From an uncultured Acidobacteriota bacterium (lineage in GTDB: Bacteria; Acidobacteriota; Vicinamibacteria; Vicinamibacterales; JAKQTR01), in the NCBI GenBank assembly GCA_963700065.1, contig CAVOWJ010000005.1, forward strand, positions 620,953-684,952: a stretch of DNA of 64,000 nt. The letters run 5' to 3'. Positions 4,108-56,697 of this stretch are shown here, in pieces. The notes under the pieces are model-generated. The model worked only from the letters and a program-made list of their open reading frames with translations. It had not been told where the DNA came from and did not search any database. How positions within the stretch are numbered: the first letter of the stretch is position 1; each line of letters opens with the position of its first letter. Both the position numbers and the translations under genes were made by a program.

Positions 4108-4347
4108 TCGACTTAGCAAACGGCGCCCAATGCTAAGTCGAGTGAAAACGCGCCAGCGGCGCGTTTTCCGCGGGGGACGCATCTCCGGGGTGCTGTCGGC
4201 GGAAGCGCGGGGCCCCGCTGCGCCTCCGCGGGAAACGCCACACCGTGGCGTTTCCATGCGCACTTGGCGACATCCCATGTCTCCAAGTGCGAAGCGGAGC
4301 CTCCCCCACGCGGACTTCGGCCCCTTCGATGCGTTTGTCACGCATTC
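4108..4347. other. Cluster of five hairpins in the intergenic region between the LolA-like gene and the OMP gene
   Basis: Stems: 4108-4118/4131-4141 (11 bp); 4144-4154/4158-4168 (11 bp, 3-nt loop); 4231-4241/4245-4255 (11 bp, 3-nt loop); 4259-4267/4283-4291 (9 bp); 4329-4334/4340-4345 (6 bp). The second and third share G(A/G)AAACGC...GCGTTT(T/C)C. Confidence 0.6.
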
Positions 4348-4395
4348 GTGATCGGCTTGCTCGCATGGTTTGCTGCGCGACGTGGCGCCGGGCCT

Positions 4396-4437
4396 CATTC
4401 TGTCTTCTGTCTTCTGTCTTCTGTCTGTCTACTGTCC
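4396..4437. repeat. Heptamer tandem array: TCTTCTG x3 plus degenerate units
   Basis: cattctg tcttctg tcttctg tcttctg tctgtct actgtcc. It overlaps the stop codon (4429-4431) of the LolA-like gene. Confidence 0.8.
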
Positions 4438-5187
4438 CCGTCTGAGCGCCTGCAGCGTGAAGTTCTCGTCCTTCATCGGCACGTTGTACTCGAGCTTGTC
4501 GAAGGTCAGGATCGTGCGGCTGTTGCGCTTGAGGTCGGCCATCTCGAGCACCCGCGCGGTCCAGATTCCCTGCACGTTGTCGATCTTCGAGTACTTCAGC
4601 CGCCGGACCACGACGTCCTTGACGTAGTTCTCGATGCGCTGGAACGCGTAGTTGTCCTTGCGCACCCACACGATGGACGACGTGTACTGGGAGGACTTCC
4701 CTTTCCGCGGGCGCGACTCGACCTTCCAGCACGCGGCCCCGTCGACGTTCTCCTCGGCGAGCATCGAGTAGTCGTACTGCCCGGTGTCGCGCTCCTCGAG
4801 ATCCTCAAAGCTGAAGTCGGTGCCGAAGAAGCGCGTGGAGCGGTCCTGCAGCGCGATGCGGCGCTCGCGCTGGATCGCCGGCGTCCACATCCACTGGTCG
4901 GACGCGCGGTCGGGATAGTTGACTACCAGCAGCGCCACGCCCTTCACCTCGGCCGGCTGAACGAACGTCAGCACGGACTTGCTCCGCCCGTGCGATCCTG
5001 TGCGGTCGTACACCCAGCGCTTATCGGAGATCTTCCCCTTCGAGTCGACGACCTGCAGAAGCCCCTCGTAGTGCTGCGACGTCGCCTCCGTGCGGCGCTG
5101 CGCTTCCTCCATCACCTGGCGCGCGTCCTGGGCGGCGGCGGGGCCGGCGGCCAGCACGAGCGCCAGAGCCGCCCTGATCAGGGGCAT
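4429..5187 (-). CDS. LolA-like outer-membrane lipoprotein-sorting family protein
   Basis: Start moved to ATG 5187, giving signal peptide MPLIRAALALVLAAGPAAAQDA. FFGTDFSFEDLEERD and the overall pattern match the LolA-like/DUF1329-type family commonly next to MacB-like permeases. Confidence 0.75.
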   Translation of the reverse strand: MPLIRAALALVLAAGPAAAQDARQVMEEAQRRTEATSQHYEGLLQVVDSKGKISDKRWVYDRTGSHGRSKSVLTFVQPAEVKGVALLVVNYPDRASDQWMWTPAIQRERRIALQDRSTRFFGTDFSFEDLEERDTGQYDYSMLAEENVDGAACWKVESRPRKGKSSQYTSSIVWVRKDNYAFQRIENYVKDVVVRRLKYSKIDNVQGIWTARVLEMADLKRNSRTILTFDKLEYNVPMKDENFTLQALRRGQ

Positions 5188-5246
5188 GGGACATGGGGCA
5201 GGGGGCAACAAGACAGGGGCATGGGGCAAGGGACAAGGGGCGGGGA
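5181..5246. repeat. G-rich heptamer array (GGGGCAT/GGGGCAA/GGGACAA units); left arm flanking the four-helix-bundle gene
   Basis: ggggcat gggacat ggggcag ggggcaa caagaca ggggcat ggggcaa gggacaa ggggcgg. This is the reverse-complement unit family of the 5693-5820 array. Confidence 0.85.
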
Positions 5247-5282
5247 AGCAAGAACGTTCACGACGCATACAACTGCTCCTAG

Positions 5283-5687
5283 TCACTGGGCACTCTGAGC
5301 ACGAGACTCGGAGTCGGCCGCTGCACGATTCCCCAGCGCCGACCGCAATCCGTGAAGAACCCTTCCCACGTCAGCTGCTGCATCAAGCAGCCTGACGGCG
5401 TCTTCCACCTGACCCATCCCAAGACGCCTCGCCAGTTCGATCTGAGTCTCCAACTCGGCCTGGGAGCCCATTGCGATGGCCACGAAGCTCGCGTATGCCG
5501 CTCTCGACCGGCGGTTGTGACCCTCCGCAACGTTCGACGGAATCGACACGGCCGACTTCCGAATGTGCGCCGCAAGTCCGAACATCTCCGACTTCGGGAA
5601 GCTCTCTGTGAATCTGTAACACCCCTCGGCCAGCTGCATGGCGAGCTTCCATGCGTCGAGATCGCGGTAGCACCGGATTGGCGTCAT
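5283..5687 (-). CDS. Four-helix-bundle protein (23S rRNA intervening-sequence protein family)
   Basis: 134 aa. YRDLDAWKLAMQLAEGCYRFTESFPKSEMFGLAAHIRKSAVSIPSNVAEGHNRRS is the characteristic signature of this family. Confidence 0.85.
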   Translation of the reverse strand: MTPIRCYRDLDAWKLAMQLAEGCYRFTESFPKSEMFGLAAHIRKSAVSIPSNVAEGHNRRSRAAYASFVAIAMGSQAELETQIELARRLGMGQVEDAVRLLDAAADVGRVLHGLRSALGNRAAADSESRAQSAQ

Positions 5688-5692
5688 TCATT

Positions 5693-5820
5693 CCCCCATG
5701 CCCCATGCCCCATGCCCCATGCCCCTTGTCCCTTGCCCCTAGCCCCCTTGTCCCCTTGCCCCTTGTCCCCTTGCCCCTTGCCCCTTGTCCCTTGCCCCTT
5801 GTCCCTTGCCCCTTGCCCCT
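5693..5820. repeat. C-rich heptamer array of about 18 units (CCCCATG/CCCCTTG/TCCCTTG); right arm flanking the four-helix-bundle gene
   Basis: 128 nt with strict 7-nt period from just after the gene start (5687) to the permease stop codon (5819-5821). It is G4-type (G3-4 N3)n on the transcribed minus strand. Confidence 0.9.
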
Positions 5821-8372
5821 ACTCGTACTCGAGCGCCTCCACAAGCGACCCCCGCACCGCCGACTCCGCCGGCCAGAGCGCGGCCACGAACGCCGCCCCG
5901 AGGATCAGCGGCACGAGCAGGGCGGCAATCGACCAGGGGAACTGGTACGGCAGCGCCATGCCGGTGATGTCGCGCTGGCTCAACTCGAGCACGTAGTGCA
6001 GCGTCACCGACCCGACGGCGAATCCCATCACCAGCCCGACCACTCCAATCGTGAGCGCCTCCATCCAGATCGTGTGGCGGATCTGGTTGCGCAGGCCGCC
6101 GACGGCCTGCAGCACGCCCAGTTCGCGCCGGCGATCGATGATCGACACGGTGAGCGTGTTCACGATCCCCAGGATCGCCACGAGCACGGCAATCGCGATC
6201 TGCGCATAGGCCAGGCCCAGCCACTGCTCGGTCAGGGCCGAGATCCAGGACCGCACTTCCTTGTTCGTCAGCACGAACAGGCGCTGCGTGCCGGCGAACC
6301 GCTCGATGATCCGCTGCCGGACGTCCATCGGCGGCACGCCTTCCTTCACGTAGATCCGGAAGACGTTCACGGTGTCATCGCCCCACCACCGGACGTAGCT
6401 CGCCCGGTCCATGAGGATCGAGCCCGACTGATCCGACCAGTCGACGACCAGGCCGACGATGGGGACCTTGTGCACGCCGGTCGGCGTGGCCAGATCCATC
6501 ACGTCGCCGTAGTGAAGGTCCTGCAGCCGCGCGAAGTTGTCCGACAGGATTACGCCCTTGCCCTGTGCCGCCATCTCGTACATCTCGGGCGGGCCTTCCA
6601 CCGGCGGCCGCCTGGCCCGGTCTCCCATCGACTTCGCCTCGACCGCCACGATCATGACGGGCGTGCCCTTGTACATCGTCCGGTGGCTGCGCACGCGCTG
6701 AAGCTCCTCGACCCCCTCGATCCGCGCCAGTTCGTCGCCGATCGCGGGCGGGAACCTGAAGTTCCGCTCGGTCAGGCTTTGCGACGCGGTCACGAACAGG
6801 TCCGGGTTCAGCGCCGTCGTGGTCCACTCCATGATCGAGTCGTAGCTGGCCTTTGCGATGCCGCCCAGCGTGACGACGAGCGCGAGCGACAGCATGAGCG
6901 CCGTCACCGTGGCCGAGGTGCGGCGCGGCGCCTGGATGAGACTGTCGGCCGCCAGCGCCCCTTCGACCGGCCGGAGCCATCGCAGGGCCGGGCGCATGGC
7001 CCGCGTGAGCCACAGCGCCCCCGTGGGGCTGAGGAGCAGGAGCGCCACAACCGCCATCGCGAACCCGGCGTAGAAGAGCGCCATCGATCGGGCCGCGAAC
7101 ACGAGCAGTGCGATCGAAAACGCGCCCAGGAGGATGGCCGCCAGACGGCGCATCCGGTTCTCGCCAGCCGACAGCACCTGGTACCGGCCTTTTTGCAGCG
7201 CCTGGATCGGATCGACCCGCGACGCGTTGCGCGCGGGGATGAACCCCGCGAGCACGCTGGTCACGACGCCCATCAGCAGGCCGAACAGCATCAGGCGGGG
7301 CTCGGTCGCGATTTCGGTCGTCCGCTCGGCGATGCCGTAGACCCCGGCAATCAACCCCGAGATGTAGAGCGCCAGGCCGCGAGACAGCAGCACGCCGAAC
7401 CCGAGGCCCAGCGTGGACCCCACCAGCCCCGACAGGCCGCTCTCGACGAGGAAGAGCGTCCGGATCTGACGGCGCGAGGCGCCCAGCGCGCGCAGGATCC
7501 CGATCTCGCGCCGCCGCTGCGCCACGGCGATCGAGAACGAGTTGTAGATGATGAACATCCCGATGAACAGCGCGAACGCGCTGTTGATGTTCGCCGTGAA
7601 GGAGTACACGCGCAGCACCGAGTCGATCTGCTGGCCGCGCGACGAGGGCGGCTCCACCTCGAAGCCGGGCCCCAGGAGGCCCTCGAATGGCCGCGCGGCC
7701 GTCGGCCACCGGCACACCCTCGTTCAGGGCCAGGTCGATCCGGTCGAACGTCCGGCCCCGCCCGAACACCATCTGGGCCGCGTAGATGTCCATCACTGCG
7801 AGGTTGCCGCCGAACGCCTGCGTCAGGCCGCCCGACTTCATGATCCCGCGCACCGTGAACTGCTTCTCGCCGTCCATGGTGCGCATCGGCACCTTCGTGC
7901 CAATCGCGATGCCGTTCCGCTCGGCGAACTCGCGCGTCACGATCAGCGAGTCGGGCTGCGCCAGGAACACCAGCGGGTCGTCGATGACCGCCTCGTCTCC
8001 GGTCTCGAGGTCGTAGTCGCGCAGCGAGCGGTCGCCGGTCATGTCCACGGCCAGGATCAGCAGGTTGCCCTCGCCCGCCAGGTTCGTGTCGACCGGCGCC
8101 TCGATGACCGGCACGGCGACCTTCACCTGCGGCATCGCCTGCACGCGCTCGAGCACGTCCTCCGGGAATCCCCCCTCGCCGGCGGTGATCTGCAGCTCCG
8201 CCTTCCCCGCGATGCGGTCGATCGTCTTGTAGAAGGCGAACAGCACCGACTGGTTGGCCGTGTGCATGCCGACGAAGACGGCTACGCCGAGCACGATCCC
8301 GACCGTCGTCAGGATCGTGCGCAGGCGGTGCCGGCGCACGTAGGGCCAGGTGATGAGGCGCAGCAGCATCAT
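5819..8372 (-). pseudogene. MacB/FtsX-type ABC transporter permease (about 850 aa, two FtsX domains) with its frame broken by one extra base near 7686
   Basis: The N-terminal part MMLLRLITWPYVRRHRLRTILT...RIDLALNEGV is in track ORF 6375..8711. The remainder, LLGPGFEVEPPSSRGQQIDSVLRVYSF...EALEYE, is in track ORF 5819..7717. Length is 2554 nt = 3n+1. Removing one T of gccatTcgag gives ...GRAAIEGLLGPGFEV. Confidence 0.8.
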
Positions 8373-9043
8373 CGCCGTTCGTCTCCGACGATCCGGCCGT
8401 CGCGCAGGGTGATGGTGCGGGCGCAGCTCGCGGCCACGTGGCGGTCGTGCGTCACGATGAGGACCGTCGCCTTCAGGCGATCGTGGAGGTCCCGGATGAG
8501 CGCGAGGATCTCCTCGCCGGTGGCCGAGTCGAGGTTGCCCGTCGGCTCGTCGGCGAGCAGGATCGGCGGGTAGATGGCCAGCGCGCGCGCGATCGCCACG
8601 CGCTGGCGCTCGCCGCCCGACAGCTCGTCCGGCAGGTGCTCGATGCGCTTGCCGAGCTGGACCAGGTCGAGCAGCTCGCGGGCACGGTCGCCGGCCTTCC
8701 TGCGGGCCCACCCGCGCAGGTGCAGCGGCAGCGCGACGTTCTCGAGGCAGCTCAGCGTGGGCAGCAGGTTGAAGAACTGGAAGATGAACCCGACCTTGTC
8801 CCGCCGCACCCTCGTCAGCGCATCGTCCCCGAGGCCGTCCAGGCGCTGGCCGTCCACCCCGATCCAGCCAGAGGTCGGGTGATCGAGCGCGCCGATCAGA
8901 TTGAGCAGGGTCGACTTGCCGGAGCCGGATGCGCCGACAATCGAGACCATCTCGCCGCGTTCGACGGAGAGGCTGACGTGGTCGAGGGCGGTGACGGTGC
9001 GCTTGCCGTCGAAGGTCTTGGTGACGTCAGACAGAGTGATCAT
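8369..9043 (-). CDS. ABC transporter ATP-binding protein (LolD/MacB-type)
   Basis: Start set at MITLSDVTKTF. Walker A GASGSGKST, signature LSGGERQRVAIARAL, Walker B ILLADEPTGNLD. Its stop overlaps the permease start (ATGA at 8369-8372). Confidence 0.9.
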   Translation of the reverse strand: MITLSDVTKTFDGKRTVTALDHVSLSVERGEMVSIVGASGSGKSTLLNLIGALDHPTSGWIGVDGQRLDGLGDDALTRVRRDKVGFIFQFFNLLPTLSCLENVALPLHLRGWARRKAGDRARELLDLVQLGKRIEHLPDELSGGERQRVAIARALAIYPPILLADEPTGNLDSATGEEILALIRDLHDRLKATVLIVTHDRHVAASCARTITLRDGRIVGDERR

Positions 9044-12972: not shown

Positions 12973-13494
12973 TCAGTCAAATGGGACTCCTTCGAAATCC
13001 CGAATGCGCTGCTTGATCGCGTCCGGCAGCGGCACGGTCCTGCCGGCGGCATAATCATACGCCGCCTGCACGCTTGTCGCCGTCGCGACCAGCCGTCCCA
13101 CGGGGTTCCGTATCTCGTAGACCATCGTGAAGCTGGCGCGCCCAAGCCGCGTGACGGCGATCGCGACATCGAGCGCCTCACCCGTCGTCGCCGGGGCGCG
13201 GAAGTCGATTTCGACCCGCGCGATGATGTAGCTCACGTCGCCGGCGAGCCGCCCGATGCCGGCGGCCTTCCAGTACGCGAACCGCGCCTGCTCGAGATAG
13301 GTCAGGTAGACGGCGTTGTTCACGTGGCCCATCGCGTCGCAGTCGCGGAAGCGCACCTCGATCGGGCAATGGACGCGATACCCGGGACTCGGGACTCGGG
13401 ACTCGGGGCTCGGCCCCTCGGCAGGCTCGCCGCGTTCCAAGTTGGCCGAAGGGCGATCATCGTCGAGCGGCGGGATTCCGGATTGGGATGTCAC
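12973..13494 (-). CDS. 4HBT/YbgC-type acyl-CoA thioesterase
   Basis: VRFRDCDAMGHVNNAVYLTYLEQARFAYW is hot-dog thioesterase-like. The N-terminal 40 aa are partly encoded by a heptamer array, so the true start is uncertain. Confidence 0.7.
   Translation of the reverse strand: MTSQSGIPPLDDDRPSANLERGEPAEGPSPESRVPSPGYRVHCPIEVRFRDCDAMGHVNNAVYLTYLEQARFAYWKAAGIGRLAGDVSYIIARVEIDFRAPATTGEALDVAIAVTRLGRASFTMVYEIRNPVGRLVATATSVQAAYDYAAGRTVPLPDAIKQRIRDFEGVPFD
13384..13411. repeat. Heptamer array: GGGACTC x3 plus GGGGCTC
   Basis: gggactc gggactc gggactc ggggctc, inside the 5' end of the thioesterase ORF. A related patch, cgggattccggattggg, lies at 13471-13487. Confidence 0.85.
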
Positions 13495-14698: not shown

Positions 14699-14705
14699 CT
14701 GTCCG

Positions 14706-14792
14706 TAGTCAGTAGTAAGTAGCCAGTAGCCAGTATTCAGTAGAAAGGCCTGTGAGCTGAACGGTGTTCAGCCCTACTGGCTACTGGCTACT
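14706..14792. repeat. Hairpin element with arms of CAGTAGN heptamers (18-bp pairing) and a 30-nt loop
   Basis: 14718-14735 agtagccagtagccagta is the reverse complement of 14775-14792. The loop has an inner 7-bp hairpin, gctgaac-ggt-gttcagc (14756-14772). It lies between the def stop and the MFS start. Confidence 0.8.
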
Positions 14793-15348
14793 CTTCGTGC
14801 TCCCGCTTCGCGTGATACCTCGCGAACTCCTCGATGAAGCTGAGGCTCTCCATCGACTTCATCCGGTCGAGGAACAGCACGCCGTCGAGATGGTCGGTCT
14901 CGTGCTGGATGACGCGGGCCATGAACCCGCTCGCCTGCAGCTCGATCGGCCGGCCGGCGCGGTCGTAGCCCTTCACCGAGATGTCGCGGTAGCGTGGCAC
15001 GAGGCCGCGCAGATCGGGAATGCTCAGGCAGCCCTCCCAGTCCTCTTCAATCTGCCGGCTGGCCGGCTTGATCTCGGGATTGACGAGCGCCAGGACTTCG
15101 GGCCTCCTCGCGTCGTTCTCGCTCTCCTCTTCGTCGTCCTGGTCGCGGATGACCTGCGCCACGAAGAGGCGCAGCTCCTCGTGCACCTGCGGCGCCGCCA
15201 GGCCCACGCCGTTGTACTCGAGCATGGTCTGCGCCATGTCGTCGATCAGCCGCTGGATCGGCGCCGCGGTGATGTCGGCCGCCGGCACGGGCCGCACCTT
15301 CTTCCGCAGGACCGGATGCCCCATCCGCGAGACTTTCAGGATAGACAT
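14788..15348 (-). CDS. def: Peptide deformylase
   Basis: The three PDF motifs are present: GVGLAAPQV, EGCLSIP and HETDHLDG. Confidence 0.95.
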   Translation of the reverse strand: MSILKVSRMGHPVLRKKVRPVPAADITAAPIQRLIDDMAQTMLEYNGVGLAAPQVHEELRLFVAQVIRDQDDEEESENDARRPEVLALVNPEIKPASRQIEEDWEGCLSIPDLRGLVPRYRDISVKGYDRAGRPIELQASGFMARVIQHETDHLDGVLFLDRMKSMESLSFIEEFARYHAKREHEE

Positions 15349-16846: not shown

Positions 16847-16936
16847 GGGCGTCAGTGTAGTACACGGGATCGACCGTGTCGATCCCCTTACTGCTTATCG
16901 ATGACTAACCCCGTGACTTGCACCACGGGCTGCTAG
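15446..16936 (-). mobile_element. IS5/IS1182-family insertion sequence (about 1.49 kb)
   Basis: Terminal inverted repeats are CTAGCAGCCCGTGG (15446-15459) and its reverse complement (16923-16936). CTAG is present at both junctions. It sits inside a CTAG-type heptamer array. Confidence 0.8.
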
Positions 16937-16991
16937 GGGATAGGCGACAGTCGATAGGGGCCAGGCGATAGGGGCCAGGGACGGGGATGGG
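16933..16991. repeat. G-rich heptamer array (GGGGATA/GGCGACA/GGGGCCA units); right part of the array split by the IS
   Basis: ctag gggatag gcgacag tcgatag gggccag gcgatag gggccag ggacggg gatggg. Confidence 0.8.
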
Positions 16992-17012: not shown

Positions 17013-17609
17013 TTGCTAAGGCGAATGACGGAAGAGCAGGCCGGGCGGGAATTTCGTTTTTGTCCGCGGTGCGGAGGGCCTTTCACCGCGCGGATTATCA
17101 AGGAAGGCGAGCCTTTCCGGCTGGTCTGCGACGCCTGCGGGTTCGTCTTCTATCTCGACCCGAAGGTGGCGGTCGGCACGATTATTCGCACGGCGGATGA
17201 CGAATTCGTGCTGTGCCGCCGGGCCATCGAGCCCGGTTACGGGCGGTGGGTCTTCCCCGGCGGCTACGTGGACCGGGGCGAGAAGCTCGAAGAGGCGGCG
17301 GTCCGCGAGGCCCGGGAGGAGTGCGGCCTCGACGTCGAGCTCGAGAGGCTCGTCAGCCTCCACTCCTATCGCGGCAAAACGCCCATCATCATCGTCTGGG
17401 CGGCGCGCGCGGTGGGGGGCGAACTGAAGGCGGCCGACGAGGAAAGTCTGGAGGTCCGGGCGTTCAGGGCCGAGACGATCCCCTGGGGCGATCTGGCCTT
17501 CGAGAGTACGGGCGAGGCGCTCAGGGCGTACTTCGGGAACCGGGATTCGGGATTGGGGATTCGGGATTCGGGGTTGATACTCACAGGGTCGATTGGAGAA
17601 CACCTATGA
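17013..17609 (+). CDS. NUDIX hydrolase with an N-terminal zinc ribbon
   Basis: CPRCGG...CDACG zinc ribbon. NUDIX box GGYVDRGEKLEEAAVREAREECGL. The C-terminal 23 aa are encoded through a heptamer array. Confidence 0.8.
   Translation: MLRRMTEEQAGREFRFCPRCGGPFTARIIKEGEPFRLVCDACGFVFYLDPKVAVGTIIRTADDEFVLCRRAIEPGYGRWVFPGGYVDRGEKLEEAAVREAREECGLDVELERLVSLHSYRGKTPIIIVWAARAVGGELKAADEESLEVRAFRAETIPWGDLAFESTGEALRAYFGNRDSGLGIRDSGLILTGSIGEHL
17542..17576. repeat. Heptamer array (GGGATTC/GGGATTG x5)
   Basis: gggattc gggattg gggattc gggattc ggggttg, inside the 3' end of the NUDIX ORF. Confidence 0.85.
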
Positions 17610-19318: not shown

Positions 19319-19325
19319 GAAGGTC

Positions 19326-19360
19326 GGGACTCGGGATTCGGGACTCGGGATTCGGGCCCG
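19326..19360. repeat. Heptamer array of alternating GGGACTC/GGGATTC
   Basis: gggactc gggattc gggactc gggattc gggcccg, between the hpnE stop and the thiI start. Confidence 0.85.
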
Positions 19361-21604: not shown

Positions 21605-22597
21605 TCAGGCCGCCCGGGGCCGGCTCCAGGAGACCGCGCTCCAGACGAGCGCCGGGACGTCGGCAGCGCCAAGCGTTGGCCGCGACGTGAAGACATCGAA
21701 GCCCGAACGCTCGAGGCGTTCGAGCACGCGCACGCCGCCGAGCCACGTCAGCCGCAGCTCGTACCGCAGGCGGCCCTCGAGGCCGTCGGCCACGGCGCGG
21801 CCGTCGTCGAACAGCGCACGGGTGCGCTCGGCCATCTCGAACATCACGGCACGCCAGGCCGGCGACATCGAGCGCGCGTCGAGATCGCCTTCGGACGCGC
21901 CGACGCGTTCGCGATCCTCGCGCGGCACGTAGAGACGGCCCTTCCGCCAGTCGCGCTCGAGATCCTGCCAGAAGTTGGTGAGCTGGAGCGCCGTGCAGAC
22001 CGCGTCGGAGGCTGCGTCGAGTCGGGCGTCGGCACGCCCGGCCACGCGAAGCACCAGGCGGCCCACCGGGTTCGCCGAGCGCCGGCAGTAGTCCATGACA
22101 TCGGCCCACGTCTCGTAGCGCGTCGTGACAACATCCTGCCGGAAGGCCGACAGCAGATCCTCGAACAGGCCGACCGGCAGTGAAAGCGTACCGATGGTGC
22201 GGGAGAGGGCGAGGAAGATGGCGTCGGCTTCAGGGACAAGGGGCAAGGGGCCTGGGGCAAGGGGCCTGGGGCATGGGCTTGCCTCGACGAAGCCGACGGA
22301 GGCTTCTGCCGAGCCGGACGGAGGCGCAGTCGGGGGCTCGGGGCTCGGGCGAACCGCCGGTCTGCTGCGCTCGCACGCCGACAGGCGAGCGCCCCAGTCG
22401 TCGAGCAGCGCGAGGCGATCGGCGGCCGGCACGTCGCCTTCGTCGGCGAAGTCGTCGGCGGTGCGGGCGAACGCGTAGATGGCCGCGATGTGCGGGCGCA
22501 TCGCGGCCGGAAGCAGGAACGAGGCGACGGGAAAGTTCTCGTAGTGCCGGCGGGCGATGCGCTCGCAGACCCCGTAGGCCTCGCCGGCGGTCACCAC
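21605..22597 (-). CDS. hpnC: Hydroxysqualene synthase (HpnC; squalene/phytoene synthase family) carrying a repeat-encoded in-frame insertion
   Basis: ERIARRHYENFPVAS, FARTADDFADE and NFWQDLERDWRKGRLYVP. A GTG start overlaps the upstream stop (GTGGTGA at 22591-22597). About 45 aa (RPAVRPSPEPP...PLPLVPE) are encoded by the heptamer/core element at 22233-22350. Confidence 0.75.
   Translation of the reverse strand: MVTAGEAYGVCERIARRHYENFPVASFLLPAAMRPHIAAIYAFARTADDFADEGDVPAADRLALLDDWGARLSACERSRPAVRPSPEPPTAPPSGSAEASVGFVEASPCPRPLAPGPLPLVPEADAIFLALSRTIGTLSLPVGLFEDLLSAFRQDVVTTRYETWADVMDYCRRSANPVGRLVLRVAGRADARLDAASDAVCTALQLTNFWQDLERDWRKGRLYVPREDRERVGASEGDLDARSMSPAWRAVMFEMAERTRALFDDGRAVADGLEGRLRYELRLTWLGGVRVLERLERSGFDVFTSRPTLGAADVPALVWSAVSWSRPRAA
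22233..22350. repeat. Heptamer arrays flanking the conserved core, located inside the hpnC coding sequence
   Basis: gggacaa ggggcaa ggggcct ggggcaa ggggcct ggggcat, then core tgcctcgacgaagccgacggaggc...ccggacggaggcgcagtc, then gggggctc ggggctc. The core is homologous to the non-coding copy at 15382-15449. Confidence 0.85.
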
Positions 22598-23124
22598 TCG
22601 GCCTCGGCCACCCCGGCGCGGCTGTTCACCACGCGAGCGAGCACGAACAGCAGGTCCGACAGGCGGTTCATGTAGGCGAGGAACTCGACCTCGAGCACGG
22701 CCAGCGCCACCATGCGCCGCTCGGCGCGCCGGCAGACCGTGCGCGCGAGATGAAGCGCGGCCGCCGCGGAGGTGCCGCCCGGCAGGATGAAGCGGCGCAG
22801 CGGCTTCAGCTCCTCCTCGCACGTGTCGATCCAGCCCTCGAGTCTGGCGACGTCGGCAGGGCCGAGCGCGACCTTCGTCACGCGGTCGGCGATCCGCTCG
22901 GCCGGATCCGCAAGGCGCGAGCCGAGCGCGAACAGGTCGCGTTGGATCTGCCCCAGCATCTCCTCGATGTCCTTGTCGACGCCGCTCGCACGCGCCACGC
23001 CGACGGCCGCGTTCGCCTCGTCGACCTCGCCGTAGGCGTCCACGCGCGGGTCCGACTTGGCGATCCGCGTGCCGTCGAAGAGCGTCGTGGCGCCGCCGTC
23101 CCCGGTTCGTGTGTAGATCTTCAT
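22591..23124 (-). CDS. PduO-type ATP:cob(I)alamin adenosyltransferase
   Basis: Start MKIYTRTGDGGATTLFDG. FILPGG and LHLARTVCRRAER are typical of the family. Confidence 0.85.
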   Translation of the reverse strand: MKIYTRTGDGGATTLFDGTRIAKSDPRVDAYGEVDEANAAVGVARASGVDKDIEEMLGQIQRDLFALGSRLADPAERIADRVTKVALGPADVARLEGWIDTCEEELKPLRRFILPGGTSAAAALHLARTVCRRAERRMVALAVLEVEFLAYMNRLSDLLFVLARVVNSRAGVAEAEW

Positions 23125-36045: not shown

Positions 36046-36087
36046 GGCTCGCCTCGTTTCAGTACCCGCTCGGCATTCACCAATGGA

Positions 36088-36190
36088 CAGCAGCCAGTAG
36101 TCAGTAGAAAGACCCTGGCTCGGTGTCCCGCGGACCTGCCGTTCGACAGGCACTCCTACTGGCTACTGACTACTGTCTACTGACGACTAC
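36088..36190. repeat. Hairpin element with arms of CAGTAGN / NCTACTG heptamers and a 48-nt loop
   Basis: Left cagcagccagtagtcagtag and right ctactggctactgactactgtctactgacgactac; 13 bp pair in the best register. It lies between the lpdA stop and the E2 start. Confidence 0.75.
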
Positions 36191-46153: not shown

Positions 46154-46202
46154 GGGATTGGGGATTCGCGGCACGGGACTCGGGACTCGGGACTCGGGAC
46201 TC
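46154..46202. repeat. Heptamer array (GGGATTG, GGGATTC, then GGGACTC x4)
   Basis: gggattg gggattc gcggcac gggactc x4, followed by the hairpin gtcgaggc-ttca-gcctcgac (46220-46239). Confidence 0.85.
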
Positions 46203-46262
46203 GGCTGGTTCGGATGGAGGTCGAGGCTTCAGCCTCGACGGACAGGCGAGAGGACACGAGTC

Positions 46263-53032: not shown

Positions 53033-54482
53033 GCTAGTACGACTTTGTTGAATCACGTCGCGGATTTCCGAGGGAATTCGCACGCGGCGAAGTGATCACT
53101 ATTGAGGACATGTACTTTTCGATCGTGGTTTGGTACGCTGCCTCGCGATGGCGGCGGTGGACTCGCCCGCGTGGCTTGCGCGTCTGACGACGTGGCTCGA
53201 GGAGTTCGAGCCGGTCTTCGGGCACCGCGCGCAACGCGGTGGTCTGCGTCGCTACGTCGAAGGGGTCTTGTGCGACAGTCGCCGCAAGTCGATGGCGGCG
53301 ATGTGGGCGCGGTTGCGCGATCCGGGCACCTATCAGGGCCTGCAGTACTTCATCACCGAGGCGACGTGGCCGGCCGACGCCTTGTGGCGGCACCTGCGTG
53401 CCACGATCCCCGCGCGATCGGGGGTGCTGGTACTCGACGGCACCGGCTTTCCCAAGCAGGGGACCGCGTCGGTCGGCGTGCAACGCCAGTACCTCGGGCA
53501 CGCTGGGCAAGATCGGCAATTGCCAAGTGGCCGTCACGGCGGCGCTGTGGACGGGCGTGCAGGCGTGGCTGGTCGGCGCGCAGCTGTATCTGCCGGAGGG
53601 GTGGCTCACGCCGGCGCAGCGGGACCGTGGTCGGATTCCGGCGCGCGTCCGTTTCCAGGAGAAGTGGCGCCAGGCGCTGACGCTGCTGCAGCAGGTCCGG
53701 GCCTCGGGGATCGCCGTGACCGCGGTCGCCGCCGATGCCGAATTCGGCGATTGCACGGCGTTTCGGCACGCGTTGCACCAACTCCGGCTCGCGTACGCCG
53801 TGGGCATCTCGTCGACCCTGACGGTCTTCCTCGGCATCCCCGCGCTTACACCAGGATCCCGGCGCAGTGGCCCCCGCGGCGGCCGCCCGGTGATCCGTCC
53901 GCGTCTGCCGGTGGACGTGCGCCCACAGGCGGTTCGCGCGGTGGCCGCGGCCGCGCCCGCCCGCGCGTGGCGGGTGATCCGCTGGCGCAATGGCACGCAC
54001 CGGCCGTGGTGCGCCCGCTTCTGGCGGTGCCGCGTGACGCCCGCGCACGACTGGCGCCGTCACCGTCTTGCGCCGGACGTGTGGCTCTTGTGCCAACGCG
54101 ACGTCGACGGCACGGGCGACATCAAGTACTTCCTGGTGAATCTGCCGGCGACGGCCTCGTGGCAGGCGGTGGTGCACCTCGCGCATCAGCGCTGGGCCAT
54201 CGAGCAGCAGTACGCCGAGCTGAAGTCCGAACTCGGCCTCGACGACTTTGTCGGCCGGTCGTTTCCGGGGTGGAACCGCCACGTGGCCCTCACAGCCGTG
54301 GCCTACGCCTTCTTGCAGGTCGAGCGACAACGCCATGGCACGTCCCGGCTGACCTTTCCACGGGCGCGCGCGGTGATGACCGATATCCTGACCGCCTACT
54401 ACTTCGTGACGCATCAGCGCAAACTCAAGATGCTGTTAAAACTGGCGGAAATCCCGCTCAGAATCTAACAAAGTCGTACTAG
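53033..54482 (+). mobile_element. IS701-family insertion sequence (1.44 kb) flanked by CTAG
   Basis: TACGACTTTGTT (53037-53048) and its reverse complement AACAAAGTCGTA (54467-54478). CTAG at 53033-53036 and 54479-54482. It is inserted in the left arm of a CTAG-type heptamer hairpin element. Confidence 0.8.
53148..54468 (+). pseudogene. IS701-family DDE transposase with its frame broken by one extra base near 53492-53498
   Basis: The N-terminus MAAVDSPAWLARLTTWLEEF...GVQRQY is in one frame. GTLGKIGNCQVAVTAALW...QRWAIEQQYAELKSELGLDDF is in the +1 frame. Length is 1321 nt = 3n+1. Confidence 0.8.
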
Positions 54483-54580
54483 GGACTAGGCGCTAGGGGC
54501 TAGTCAGTCTCGCAGTTGAACTGCCACCCACGCGGCGACAGCCGCGTCGGACGAGCGCCTAGCGCCCAGCCCCTAGCCCC
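54483..54580. repeat. Hairpin element with CTAG-type heptamer arms; its left arm continues at 53027-53036 before the IS
   Basis: Left ggactaggcgctaggggctagtcag and right cgcctagcgcccagcccctagcccc. The loop shares ccacgcggcgacagccgcgtcgga with the loop of the 1549-1653 element. Confidence 0.75.
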
Positions 54581-56632
54581 TTACTTCGCCCAGCGCCCGA
54601 CCCACTCCAGAAACGTCCGGTACCAGAGCGCCGCGTTCTGGGGCTTGCCAATCCAGTGCCCCTCGTCGGGGAACACCAGCAGGCGCGACGGGATGCCCTG
54701 GCGCTGGAGTGTCGTGAAGAGCTGGAGCCCCTCGCCCACGGGCACGCGGAAGTCGAGCTCGCCGTGCGTGACGAGCGTGGGCGTCTTGAAGTTCTTCGCG
54801 TAGGTGTGTGGCGACCACTTCGCGTAGCCCTCGGGATTGGTCCAGGGCGTGCCGCCGAGATCCCACTCGGGGAACCACAGCTCCTCGGTGGCGCCGTACA
54901 TGCTCGTCAGGTTGAACACGCCGGCGTGCGAGACCAGCGCCTTGAAGCGGTCGGTGTGGCCGAGGAACCAGTTCATCATGTAGCCGCCGTACAACGCGCC
55001 GGCCGCCACCTTCCGTGACGCGTCGACATAGGGCAGCTTTTCGGCGTAGTCCACGCCCTTCATCAGGTCGTCGAACGGCTTGCCGCCCCAGTCGTTGCTG
55101 ATCTCGTCGGTGAACTTCTGGCCGAAGCCCGTCGAGCCCCGGAAGTTGACCATGAAGACGACGTAGCCCGCCGATGCGAAGACCTGGGCGTTCCAGCGGT
55201 ACGTCCATCCGTCGTTCCACGCGCCCTGCGGGCCGCCGTGCACGAGGTACAGGAGCGGGTACTTCACGCCGTCCTTGAACGTGTTCGGCTTCACGACCCA
55301 TGCCTGGACCGGCACCCCGCCCGCTCCCGCGAAGGTCACGCTCTCGGCCGGCTTGAGTGCGAACGTCGCGAGGAACTCCCGGTTGATCGTGGTGACGGCG
55401 GTCACGCCCGTCCCGTCGGCATTCGCGCGGTAGATCTCGGCCGGTGCCGTCAGCGACGCCTGGGAGAAGATGATGGTCTTGCCGTCGGGCGTCACCTGCA
55501 CGTCGCCGTTTGTCGCGTCCTTCAGCACCAGCCTGGGCGGTCCGCCGGCCAGATCGAACCGGTAGACGCGCACCCGGCCGTCTTCTTCGGCGGCCGTGTA
55601 GACCGCCTTCGAGTCCGGCGTGAACGTCCAGCCGTCCACGGCGCGGTCCCAGTCGGCCGTCAGCACGCGCCGCTCCCCTGATCTGCGATCGAGCAGGTTC
55701 AGCGTCCAGCGATCGGCCTCGAAGCCGGCCCGCGCCTGCGAACGCCACGCGAGGTACTTCCCGTCCGGCGTGTAGTGCGGGCCGCCGTCGGCGCCCAGCG
55801 CCGTCGTGATCTGCTTCGGCTGCGCGCCAGCCACGGTCAGGTCGATCGTGAAGATGTCGCTGTTCGTGCTGATGGCTTCGACCTTGTCGGTCTTCTTCGC
55901 GAACGCGATCTCCTTCGAGTCGGGCGAGAACGCATAGTCCTCGGGGCCGCCGAGCGAGAACGGCGGCACGTCGGACGTGCCCGGCGTCAGGTCGCGCGGC
56001 GGAGCCGAACCGTCGGCCGGCATCAGGAACAGGTGGCTGTAGGTGCCCTGCCGCCACGCGGTCCAGTGCCTGAACATCAGCCCGTCGGCCAGGTATGCCT
56101 TGACCTTCGATTCGTCGCGCGCCTTCAGCTCGCGCTCGTGGCAGGCTGCATCGGCACACGCCGGGAAGACCTCGGACACAAAAGCGATCCACTTTCCGTC
56201 GGGCGACCAACTGACGCCCGAGGCTTCCGTGGCGATGGAGGTGAGCTTCCTCGGCTCGCCCCCGGACGCGGGGATCACCCAGACCTGCGAGCCGCCGTCG
56301 CGGTTCGACACGAACGCCAGCTGCCTGCCGTCCGGAGACCAGCGCGGCCGATCTTCCGACCGATCCGTCCCCGCCACCTTGACCGGCGCGCCGCCTGCCA
56401 CCGGCACGATCCAGATGTCGTTGTTGCGCGTGTTACGGTCGAGGCTCACGTCCGTGACGACGAAAGCGATCTTCGTGCCGTCGGGCGAGAGCTGCGGGTC
56501 GGACACCCGCTTCAACTTCAGCATCTCGTCCACGGTGAACGCCGCCGGACCCTGCGCCCAGGCGGTGCTCGCGGCGAGCGTCAGCAATCCAAGAATCAGC
56601 GTCGTGTTGAGAATCAGCCTGCAGCGTGACAT
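54581..56632 (-). CDS. S9-family (prolyl oligopeptidase/DPP-like) protein with an N-terminal beta-propeller; nucleophile Ser replaced by Leu
   Basis: Signal peptide MSRCRLILNTTLILGLLTLAASTAWAQG. TolB-like repeats. The C-terminal hydrolase has GELDFRVP and DEGHW, but GALYGGYM appears where GxSxGG is expected (Leu codon TTG at 54992-54994). Confidence 0.8.
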   Translation of the reverse strand: MSRCRLILNTTLILGLLTLAASTAWAQGPAAFTVDEMLKLKRVSDPQLSPDGTKIAFVVTDVSLDRNTRNNDIWIVPVAGGAPVKVAGTDRSEDRPRWSPDGRQLAFVSNRDGGSQVWVIPASGGEPRKLTSIATEASGVSWSPDGKWIAFVSEVFPACADAACHERELKARDESKVKAYLADGLMFRHWTAWRQGTYSHLFLMPADGSAPPRDLTPGTSDVPPFSLGGPEDYAFSPDSKEIAFAKKTDKVEAISTNSDIFTIDLTVAGAQPKQITTALGADGGPHYTPDGKYLAWRSQARAGFEADRWTLNLLDRRSGERRVLTADWDRAVDGWTFTPDSKAVYTAAEEDGRVRVYRFDLAGGPPRLVLKDATNGDVQVTPDGKTIIFSQASLTAPAEIYRANADGTGVTAVTTINREFLATFALKPAESVTFAGAGGVPVQAWVVKPNTFKDGVKYPLLYLVHGGPQGAWNDGWTYRWNAQVFASAGYVVFMVNFRGSTGFGQKFTDEISNDWGGKPFDDLMKGVDYAEKLPYVDASRKVAAGALYGGYMMNWFLGHTDRFKALVSHAGVFNLTSMYGATEELWFPEWDLGGTPWTNPEGYAKWSPHTYAKNFKTPTLVTHGELDFRVPVGEGLQLFTTLQRQGIPSRLLVFPDEGHWIGKPQNAALWYRTFLEWVGRWAK

Positions 56633-56667
56633 CCCCTTGCCCCCTGTCCCTTGCCCCTTGCCCCTGT
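56633..56667. repeat. C-rich heptamer array (CCCCTTG family)
   Basis: ccccttg ccccctg tcccttg ccccttg cccctgt, between the divergent S9 and SNF2 genes. Confidence 0.85.
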
Positions 56668-56697
56668 CCGGTCCCGAGAATAGCACGCCCCTTGCGT

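Follow-up and report, generated by a model that had tools for sequence, protein, structure and literature searches.

Intervening sequences (IVSs) of 23S rRNA that bear an open reading frame (ORF), and their excision by RNase III, are already known, as are the heptamers of the Coxiella IVS and the heptamer arrays dispersed through other bacterial genomes. In the Coxiella 23S IVS, 2–3 GACAGAT units plus a GACAGAA stand directly before the ATG of the S23p ORF, in a copy number that varies among strains, and the element has a 28-bp terminal stem which RNase III cuts in vitro, with ends mapped by rapid amplification of cDNA ends (RACE) at the first repeat (PMC4990558). rRNA insertions of the Candidate Phyla Radiation (CPR) also carry an ORF of the S23p family (PMC11270868). 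Here, we analyzed a 64-kb window, i.e., a stretch of 64,000 nt from an uncultured Vicinamibacterales-type acidobacterium (contig CAVOWJ010000005.1), in which a gene for a 134-amino-acid (aa) four-helix-bundle protein lies between heptamer arrays in the spacer of a permease/LolA-like operon. We read this unit as a hairpin cassette that bears an ORF and belongs with the ORF-containing IVSs of 23S rRNA. That it is an IVS-type hairpin kept for its pairing seems to us quite probable, and the full explanation, mechanism included, is one that we favor with moderate confidence.

The cassette resembles the rRNA IVSs of Coxiella and Leptospira in that an ORF of the same family lies, in sense orientation, in the loop of a stem formed by terminal inverted repeats; as in Coxiella, tandem heptamers of variable copy number directly precede the ORF start. 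In these respects, the parallel drawn in an initial annotation of the window, which had read the unit as IVS-like, holds; that reading stands in part, with RNase III processing and mobility remaining inferred. Unlike the rRNA elements, the cassette is hosted by an mRNA operon spacer rather than by helix 25 or 45 of 23S rRNA, and its 3′ arm is probably translated within the downstream gene. Its arms are also longer than the Coxiella stem (128 and ~70 nt vs 28 bp), and its intact ORF evolves under purifying selection, in contrast to the Coxiella ORF, which is decaying and probably not translated. A displaced fragment of an rRNA operon can be rejected: no Rfam family reached its gathering score anywhere in the window, the arms and other arrays included, the flanking genes encode proteins, and 0 of 20 relatives’ loci scanned were located in rRNA.

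The arrays have described counterparts as well. Dispersed heptamer arrays in Xanthomonas (GGGAATC), cyanobacteria (short tandemly repeated repetitive sequences, STRR/GGGGAYT), Beggiatoaceae (TAACTGA), and Geobacter (heptanucleotide elements) share the period of 7 and the intergenic or intercistronic location, and the corresponding papers describe frequent inverted pairs, variable copy numbers, and G-rich types able to form G-quadruplexes (G4) (PMC4692102, PMC4679880, PMC2700814). For X. campestris, Rehm et al. report ~186 dispersed GGGAATC arrays with 70 convergent pairs (given also as 70–75) and leave them unexplained (PMC4692102). Unlike free-standing dispersed arrays, the two arrays considered here enclose a PF05635 gene, and the passages searched in the three papers mention no link between PF05635 and dispersed arrays.

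Two further systems invite comparison. Avd, the accessory protein of diversity-generating retroelements (DGRs), has a four-helix-bundle fold and a pentameric assembly (PMC10053308). The cassette protein is a homologous four-helix bundle with weak PF22296 and NF033474 matches, and it differs from Avd in its NF033474 equivalog score (17.3 vs a cut-off of 80); neither a reverse transcriptase nor template/variable repeats were noticed nearby, the immediate neighbors being permease and LolA-like genes, and no search was aimed at them. Like the hairpins of repetitive extragenic palindromic sequences and bacterial interspersed mosaic elements (REP/BIME) and of MITEs (miniature inverted-repeat transposable elements), the elements described here are short dispersed palindromes in operon spacers, with or without a coding core and with presence/absence polymorphism. 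Unlike these, their arms are tandem 7–8-nt arrays of lineage-specific units rather than one conserved palindrome, and the cassette includes no transposase, no REP-associated tyrosine transposase (RAYT), and no target-site duplication recognizable within its repeat arrays.

A PF05635 gene enclosed by complementary heptamer arrays

By its profile matches, the 134-aa ORF is clearly a member of the PF05635/TIGR02436 family (23S rRNA IVS protein, S23p, Avd-related), as had been assigned initially: the PF05635 (23S_rRNA_IVP) match scored 106.2 bits against a cut-off of 33.8 (E 1.3e-30; residues 8–112 on profile positions 1–105 of 106), and the TIGR02436 match 98.7 bits against 24. The best solved relative found with phmmer in the PDB was XCC0516 of Xanthomonas campestris (2GSC; E 2.1e-26, residues 5–123, i.e., 119 residues), a homopentamer of four-helix bundles (Lin et al. 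2006, as cited in PMC4990558). Compared to five orthologues, the cassette gene displayed dN/dS ratios of 0.11–0.19, indicating purifying selection, and it was intact in all orthologues at the LolA site. Its GC content at third codon positions (GC3) was 0.72, vs 0.94 in both neighbors. Taken together, these features indicate a gene that is compositionally foreign yet functionally constrained, and the low GC3 is consistent with a foreign, once-inserted element. Avd binds nucleic acid and reverse transcriptase, and by analogy nucleic-acid binding is our best guess for the role of the cassette protein. An exact look-up of the cassette protein retrieved no record. PADLOC returned no defence-system match, and the phage collection contained no homologue of the protein, so that a phage or DGR origin is unsupported. 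No other PF05635 gene was found in the window (n = 1).

On the minus strand, the permease gene is followed by the cassette and the LolA-like gene, with the 128-nt array opening at the permease stop (Table 1); the ORF, its two neighbors, and both arrays were all found where the initial annotation had placed them. Read as RNA, the 5′ arm consists of GGGGCAA/GGGACAA units turning into GGGGCAU close to the ORF and closes with the Shine–Dalgarno-like GGGGGAAUGA immediately before the cassette ATG. About 30 nt of unique sequence then separate the cassette stop from the 3′ array, whose RNA units are CCCCUUG, UCCCUUG, and CCCCAUG. Tandem Repeats Finder (TRF) detected the 5′ array at 5694–5820 (period 7, 17.7 copies, 88% matches, score 171, consensus CCCCTTG) and the 3′ array at 5181–5245 (degenerate GGGGCAW, periods 7 and 21).

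The two arrays are reverse complements of each other, 5215–5241 with 5794–5820 (27 nt, 96%) and 5180–5232 with 5768–5820 (53 nt, 77%). When the minus-strand RNA 5835–5170 was folded, the arms paired in a minimum free energy (MFE) structure of −336 kcal/mol (z = −5.9, 0 of 20 shuffles equally stable), with 76 predicted base pairs joining both flanks (5745–5821 with 5181–5261). This agrees with the topology proposed at the outset, a stem with the ORF in its loop; the array ends given then need one correction, as complementarity on the 3′ side extends further, to ~5254–5261. The 5′ and 3′ flanks likewise paired in the MFE structure of all 11 cassettes folded (23–76 bp; these folds were run without shuffles).

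Next, we compared the arm units between orthologues at the LolA site (L numbers denote the loci compared). The units of both arms change jointly, in the last three bases: CAA/TTG in the window, L001, L090, and L091, CAT/ATG in L087, CGT/ACG in L093, and CTC/GAG in L169. Similarly, one Lysobacterales unit reads GGGAGT in both arms in X. campestris and GGGAAT in both arms in Stenotrophomonas. Since units change on both arms together, complementarity is maintained, which from these comparisons could reflect either selection on the duplex or concerted evolution of inverted repeats. The copy number of the 5′-arm heptamer varies as well, from ~18 in the window to roughly 5–6 in L001, L087, and L091. 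No sigma-70-like promoter or intrinsic terminator was found on the minus strand in a scan of 4300–8900, which did not cover other promoter types, and co-transcription of the operon as one RNA is therefore the simplest assumption.

The association of this gene family with flanking arrays extends far beyond the window. Scanning with one genome per species yielded 80 loci of relatives from Acidobacteriota, Alpha-, Gamma-, and Deltaproteobacteria, Gemmatimonadota, Bacteroidota, Ignavibacteria, Patescibacteria, Omnitrophota, Chloroflexota, and others. Inverted repeats were sought in 200 nt on either side of the gene, a score ≥14 being considered strong, in 83 loci, i.e., scan loci with sufficient flank plus added orthologues. 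A strong flanking inverted repeat was detected for 44 of the 83 PF05635-family loci but for only 1 of 253 other ORFs of the same loci, and a position-shifted control gave the same picture (33/77 loci vs 0/385 shifted positions, p = 1e-23). A family census had been suggested alongside the IVS-like reading, and its outcome supports that reading. The arms had a period of 7 in 30 loci and of 8 in 11, with lineage-specific units such as GGCGAAT, GGGCGAC, GTTAATA, GACCGTT, AAGTGAA, AGCTYTT, GTTGTCR, AGTAAAA, and ACGTTAT, octamers like AGTCAGCR, and GGGTGTR/YACACCC in cassettes on cyanobacterial plasmids. In most cassettes, the arms open a few nt after the upstream stop and close ~0–40 nt from a co-directional downstream start. 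Some occupy spacers of conserved operons: judging from flanking translations, candidate cases are L003, before a NuoD-like gene, and L026, between ClpP-like and ClpX-like genes.

The crystallised XCC0516 is itself encoded in such a cassette, located between accB and accC with (GGGAATN)x4 arms, and accB–cassette–accC arrangements with the same arm core were also found in Stenotrophomonas, Lysobacter, and Dokdonella. In the stems formed by (GGGAATN)x4 arms (L161, L164, L165, L167), a mismatch between the arms usually falls on the 7th base of a unit, which leaves 6-bp helices split by 1×1 internal loops. The annotated N-terminus of XCC0516 (MENRESAK...) is encoded by the 5′ arm.

Transposase genes adjoin a few family members. 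The Nostoc PCC 7120 plasmids gamma and alpha (L177 and L178) encode an identical four-helix-bundle protein (WP_010994075.1), in both cases directly 3′ of a transposase-coding sequence, which in L177 carries an ISL3-family annotation; there, the 3′ heptamer arm (CYTCTGC) is retained and the 5′ arm is apparently displaced by the transposase-coding sequence. At L172 (1768–3300), a paralogous cassette with a 58% identical protein adjoins a Y1_Tnp gene (IS200/IS605/RAYT-type), with REP-like GC hairpins upstream and a 3′ arm of ~27 TAGCSCC units, far longer than the 5′ arm.

Table 1 Features of the permease/LolA-like operon around the cassette (positions in the 64-kb window)
Feature	Coordinates	Strand	Basis
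FtsX/MacB_PCD permease, upstream cistron, duplicated FtsX/MacB type (3′ part)	5819..7717	minus	Pfam and NCBIfam; stop TAG 5821–5819
5′ arm, ~18 G-rich heptamers in RNA	5694..5821	minus	TRF, direct reading, MFE pairing
Cassette gene, four-helix bundle, 134 aa, hairpin loop	5283..5687	minus	ATG 5687; stop TGA 5285–5283; PF05635/TIGR02436
Inner 3′ junction, probable LolA-like start sites, loop side of stem	5255..5286	minus	direct reading
3′ arm, C-rich heptamers, ~70 nt, complementary to 5′ arm	5181..5254	minus	TRF, inverted-repeat pairs I1–I13, fold, frame analysis
LolA-like gene body (PF17131, E 3.6e-53), downstream cistron	4429..5187	minus	Pfam; translation with signal-peptide-like N-terminus
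Next intercistronic spacer of the operon, wholly (GACAGAA)x4	4399..4428	minus	TRF 4398–4426, 100% matches; sequence

Two side observations concern the operon. The permease is split over two frames, with MacB_PCD in the frame of 6375–8711 and both FtsX domains in 5819–7717, the switch lying near 7662–7675 (minus), vs a single ORF of 761–795 aa or more in orthologues L092, L095, and L112; the split reflects either a frameshift, a pseudogene, or misassembly. In addition, consecutive spacers of the operon are all made of heptamer arrays: the (GACAGAA)x4 spacer abuts the next ORF’s ATG at 4398, and its heptamer is the one that the Coxiella IVS has, as a degenerate repeat (GACAGAT/GACAGAA), ahead of its S23p ATG.

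Probable translation of the LolA-like gene through the 3′ arm

The initial annotation had the LolA-like gene start at ATG 5187 and the 3′ arm lie between messages, and both points need revision. ATG 5187 belongs to the final heptamer of the 3′ arm, and the LolA-like frame is open across the whole arm, up to ATG 5268 and GTG 5286. GTG 5286–5284 overlaps the cassette stop (GTGA), and AGGAG at 5280–5276 lies 7 nt before the in-frame ATG 5268. In this frame, the 3′ arm encodes a Pro/Cys/Ala-rich N-terminal extension. All seven cassettes at the LolA site displayed an ATG or GTG that overlaps the cassette stop in the LolA-like frame, placing the 3′ arm inside the probable coding frame in 7/7 orthologues. 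From this start to the conserved QDAR motif, the seven cassettes displayed five distances (93, 99, 108, 132, and 156 nt), all in frame; since gain or loss of heptamers shifts the frame, its retention by chance is unlikely, roughly (1/3)^4. Furthermore, in several orthologues it is from the extension alone that the signal peptide gains a positively charged n-region, and L169 has no suitable internal start. On these sequence features, ATG 5187 is probably not the sole LolA-like start, or not a start at all, and GTG 5286 and ATG 5268 are probable start sites from which the 3′ arm would be translated.

A similar pattern was seen at accB–accC. In 4/4 cassettes there, from four genera, a relay ORF crosses the 3′ arm, beginning at the cassette stop (ATGA or TAGTG) and ending 7–10 nt beyond the accC ATG. 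In our interpretation, ribosomes translate across the 3′ arm, which would keep the downstream gene expressed despite the stem. Start codons downstream of hairpin cassettes are probably miscalled in annotation, and arrays may be translated as N-terminal extensions.

History of the spacer and the other arrays of the window

Scanning metagenomes with the LolA-like protein yielded 80 orthologous loci (69–94% identity), including permease/LolA-like operons without the insert, a comparison proposed in the initial annotation. Among these loci, the spacer occurs in three states. The cassette with inverted arms was found in the window, L087, L090, L091, L093, L001, and the more distant L169. A second state comprises arrays only, i.e., 66–143 nt of solely sense-strand G-rich heptamers (units GGCGCTA, GGGGATT, CGGGAYT, and GGGGATA/GGCGAGA) ending in a GGGAAG-type Shine–Dalgarno sequence and ATG. 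More distant orthologues have a short spacer with neither cassette nor arrays.

When the LolA-like proteins were placed on a neighbor-joining tree, loci with the cassette and loci with arrays only intermingled in a single shallow clade, and the outgroup lacked both; this implies a minimum of three or four gains or losses. LolA-like and cassette proteins show the same rank order of identity to those of the window (91/86, 87/81, 85/81, and 82/73%), the cassette proteins of LolA-site orthologues being 63–90% identical. Since cassette identity tracks the host gene, one old insertion followed by repeated loss fits better than repeated insertion, with only a handful of loci to compare. From these patterns, the cassette would have entered the site in the ancestor of the shallow clade and then been several times lost or reduced to G-rich arrays. 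The view of the cassette as a mobile or once-mobile element is retained only in part: its GC3 fits a once-inserted element, but the accB–accC cassette stayed put in four Lysobacterales genera. An invertible switch was also considered and dropped, the ORF having the same orientation in all orthologues and no recombinase being present. As a separate observation, L081 and L089 share an identical 98-nt array spacer, even though their LolA-like genes (90% and 81% identical to the window’s) lie on separate branches of the tree; recombination or a chimeric assembly could account for this.

Beyond the cassette, no fewer than 12 other arrays were detected in the window, located in spacers or at gene ends; arrays are very common there, at about one per 3–4 kb in many spacers. 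Some form ORF-less hairpins of two families, (GGSGCTA)n-GTCAG...GCGGCGAYAGCCGC...(TAGCSCC)n at 1548–1655 and 54476–54582, and (CAGTAGY)n-AAAG...(CTACTGR)n at 14700–14795 and 36086–36188, with CAGTAGAAAGRCC at the junction. Loops are partly conserved in both families, and the hairpins lie between convergent genes or cistrons, like REP elements. The full cassette at L172, which comes from a related metagenomic genome, has arms of the family-1 unit (GGSGCTA/TAGCSCC) and the junction GGTCAGGCAG, and the window has GCTAGTCAGGCAG at 1565–1577; the array-only alleles L083 and L085 contain half-elements of the form (GGCGCTA)n-GTCAG. The earlier suggestion that such “empty” hairpins are relatives of the cassette is therefore compatible with one of them sharing unit family and junction motif with L172. 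That they are ORF-less derivatives of cassettes is suggestive only, the shared junction being 9 nt and weak.

Other arrays touch coding sequence. At 22230–22349, inside the squalene/phytoene synthase gene 21605–22822 (minus; PF00494, E 1e-66), two in-frame arrays, of GGGGCAA type and GGGGCTC x3 (plus strand), contribute ~45 Pro/Ala-rich residues, inserted between conserved blocks. At 56633–56670 (minus), a (GGGGCAA)n array, i.e., the unit of the cassette 5′ arm, runs into the ATG TCA CGC TGC of a prolyl-oligopeptidase/PD40 gene, whose N-terminus (MSRC...) resembles LolA-like N-termini of array-only loci (MSRC/MSLR); array and start may represent a shared module. Solo arrays of CGGGACT, TCGGGAY, and GGGGATA/GGCGACA types lie at gene ends (13376–13416, 46167–46207, 17533–17577, 19322–19358, and 16934–16979), and these unit families recur in array-only alleles of the permease/LolA-like spacer on related metagenomic contigs (L081–L089).

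Mechanism, rival explanations, and significance

Under the explanation we favor, the operon would be transcribed as one RNA, in which the arms would zip into a ~60–76 bp duplex with the ORF looped out. LolA-like translation would start on the loop side, at GTG 5286, which overlaps the cassette stop, or at ATG 5268, which is preceded by AGGAG, and ribosomes leaving or starting beside the cassette ORF would read through the 3′ arm and open the stem. We propose that, through this loop-side start and read-through, the host tolerates the insert. Left untranslated, the stem would be a long near-perfect double-stranded RNA, the type of substrate cut by RNase III in the homologous Coxiella and Leptospira IVSs, and competition between cleavage and read-through would set the ratio of permease, cassette protein, and LolA-like protein. 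We see about equal chances that RNase III does and does not cut the cassette stem in vivo.

Several points weigh against this explanation. Pairing and cleavage are model-based predictions, and arms were detectable in only about half of the sampled family members. Stem mismatches comprise 33 G–U vs 24 A–C without a clear bias, so that RNA-level selection is indistinguishable from DNA-level concerted evolution of inverted repeats. Starts overlapping the cassette stop are not general in the PF05635 family (~15/88 loci) and were dropped as a family-wide feature, being retained for LolA-site and accB–accC cassettes. Since the 3′ arm is inside the probable LolA-like frame, RNase III cleavage there would destroy the start of that gene rather than merely separate messages, which is awkward for a benign “excision”. 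For this reason, we consider neat RNase III separation less likely than a stem combined with coupling, in which cleavage would form a side route of down-regulation or degradation. Finally, the GGGAAT arm core is conserved in four Lysobacterales genera while its 7th base is usually mismatched between the arms, a hint of sequence-specific recognition over mere duplex formation.

This last point leads to the strongest rival, which is compatible with the RNA-stem model and, in our view, rather unlikely: a protein-and-repeat system in which the pentameric protein recognizes 7–8-nt arrays, as RNA or DNA, with its own arms as one site among many. Solo arrays and empty hairpins would then be targets or non-autonomous MITE-like derivatives, and the stem secondary to binding or propagation. 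The kinship of the family with Avd, as a nucleic-acid and reverse-transcriptase binder, would suit such a system, as would the dozen or more further arrays of the window and the units that its two hairpin families share with cassettes elsewhere. Moreover, the arms of XCC0516 have the unit of the dispersed Xanthomonas heptamer and its modal copy number (x4; PMC4692102), and arms typically have 4–6 units, the protein being a homopentamer (Lin et al. 2006, as cited in PMC4990558). However, the unit at the LolA site turns over (CAA, CAT, CGT, CTC) under a protein that remains 63–90% identical, which argues against strict sequence-specific recognition, and arrays far outnumber PF05635 genes, with one such gene in the whole window. 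Array binding by the protein is also putative, and would leave the RNA-stem model standing.

The remaining alternatives appear less probable. An uncleaved, REP-like structural element acting as transcript stabilizer, pause site, or insulator, with the ORF as passenger, would bring the upstream stop close to the downstream start, much like REP/BIME hairpins in operons of enterobacteria; the close spacing of arms to neighboring stops and starts and the location of the window’s empty hairpins fit this idea. We nonetheless deem it improbable, as homologous rRNA IVSs are demonstrably cleaved (PMC4990558) and the strong purifying selection on the ORF indicates that it is no mere passenger. A G-quadruplex or i-motif regulator, with (GGGGCAA)n controlling expression as G4 in RNA or non-template DNA and complementarity incidental, could draw on the 5′ arm being a textbook (G4N3)n motif on the sense strand, i.e., a putative G4 with at least four consecutive G3–4 tracts at 7-nt spacing, on the ~50 nt by which this arm exceeds its partner, and on G4 formation by GGGAATC repeats in vitro (PMC4692102). 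Yet the arms of many homologous cassettes are AT-rich and devoid of G tracts (AGTAAAA, GTTAATA, AAGTGAA, ACGTTAT) but still complementary, and the covariation of arm units would go unexplained, which makes this regulator very improbable. Coincidence, i.e., a small gene landing between two of the heptamer microsatellites with which this genome fills its spacers, might be entertained given how common arrays are in the window and given the array-only alleles at the same site. Its probability is close to nil: the arms share one inverted unit family, the units covary, and the control-ORF and shifted-position tests effectively refute it.

In the searchable literature, older subscription papers being beyond reach, we found no report that inverted 7–8-nt arrays generally enclose those PF05635 genes that lie outside rRNA, that XCC0516 lies in a cassette built of the Xanthomonas GGGAATC repeat, or that a 3′ arm is read through; the gene family is linked there to flanking arrays only for the Coxiella IVS. 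Priority for the cassette–array link is uncertain given that older literature.

So far, S23p-ORF IVSs have been seen as a curiosity of rRNA genes, and the heptamers of Xanthomonas, cyanobacteria, Geobacter, and Beggiatoaceae as microsatellites lacking an explanation; our results connect the two. The gene-in-hairpin unit is found in operon spacers of Acidobacteriota, Proteobacteria, Gemmatimonadota, Bacteroidota, Cyanobacteria, Patescibacteria, and others, even inside essential operons. Tentatively, and with more doubt than for the cassette itself, PF05635 genes with their inverted 7–8-nt arrays may be the autonomous form of a widespread, unrecognized class of hairpin elements, of which empty hairpins and solo arrays would be ORF-less derivatives or footprints, and whose arrays an Avd-like pentamer would recognize, maintain, or spread. 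If true, these elements live where broken or looped-out RNA is tolerated, i.e., at rRNA helix tips and in operon spacers such as accB–accC, nuoC–nuoD, and clpP–clpX, and their ORF-less derivatives include the Xanthomonas GGGAATC, cyanobacterial STRR, and Geobacter and Beggiatoa heptamers along with the dozen arrays of this window. This would account for the long-noted excess of heptamers in bacterial genomes as well as for the function of an orphan family whose structure has been available since 2006.

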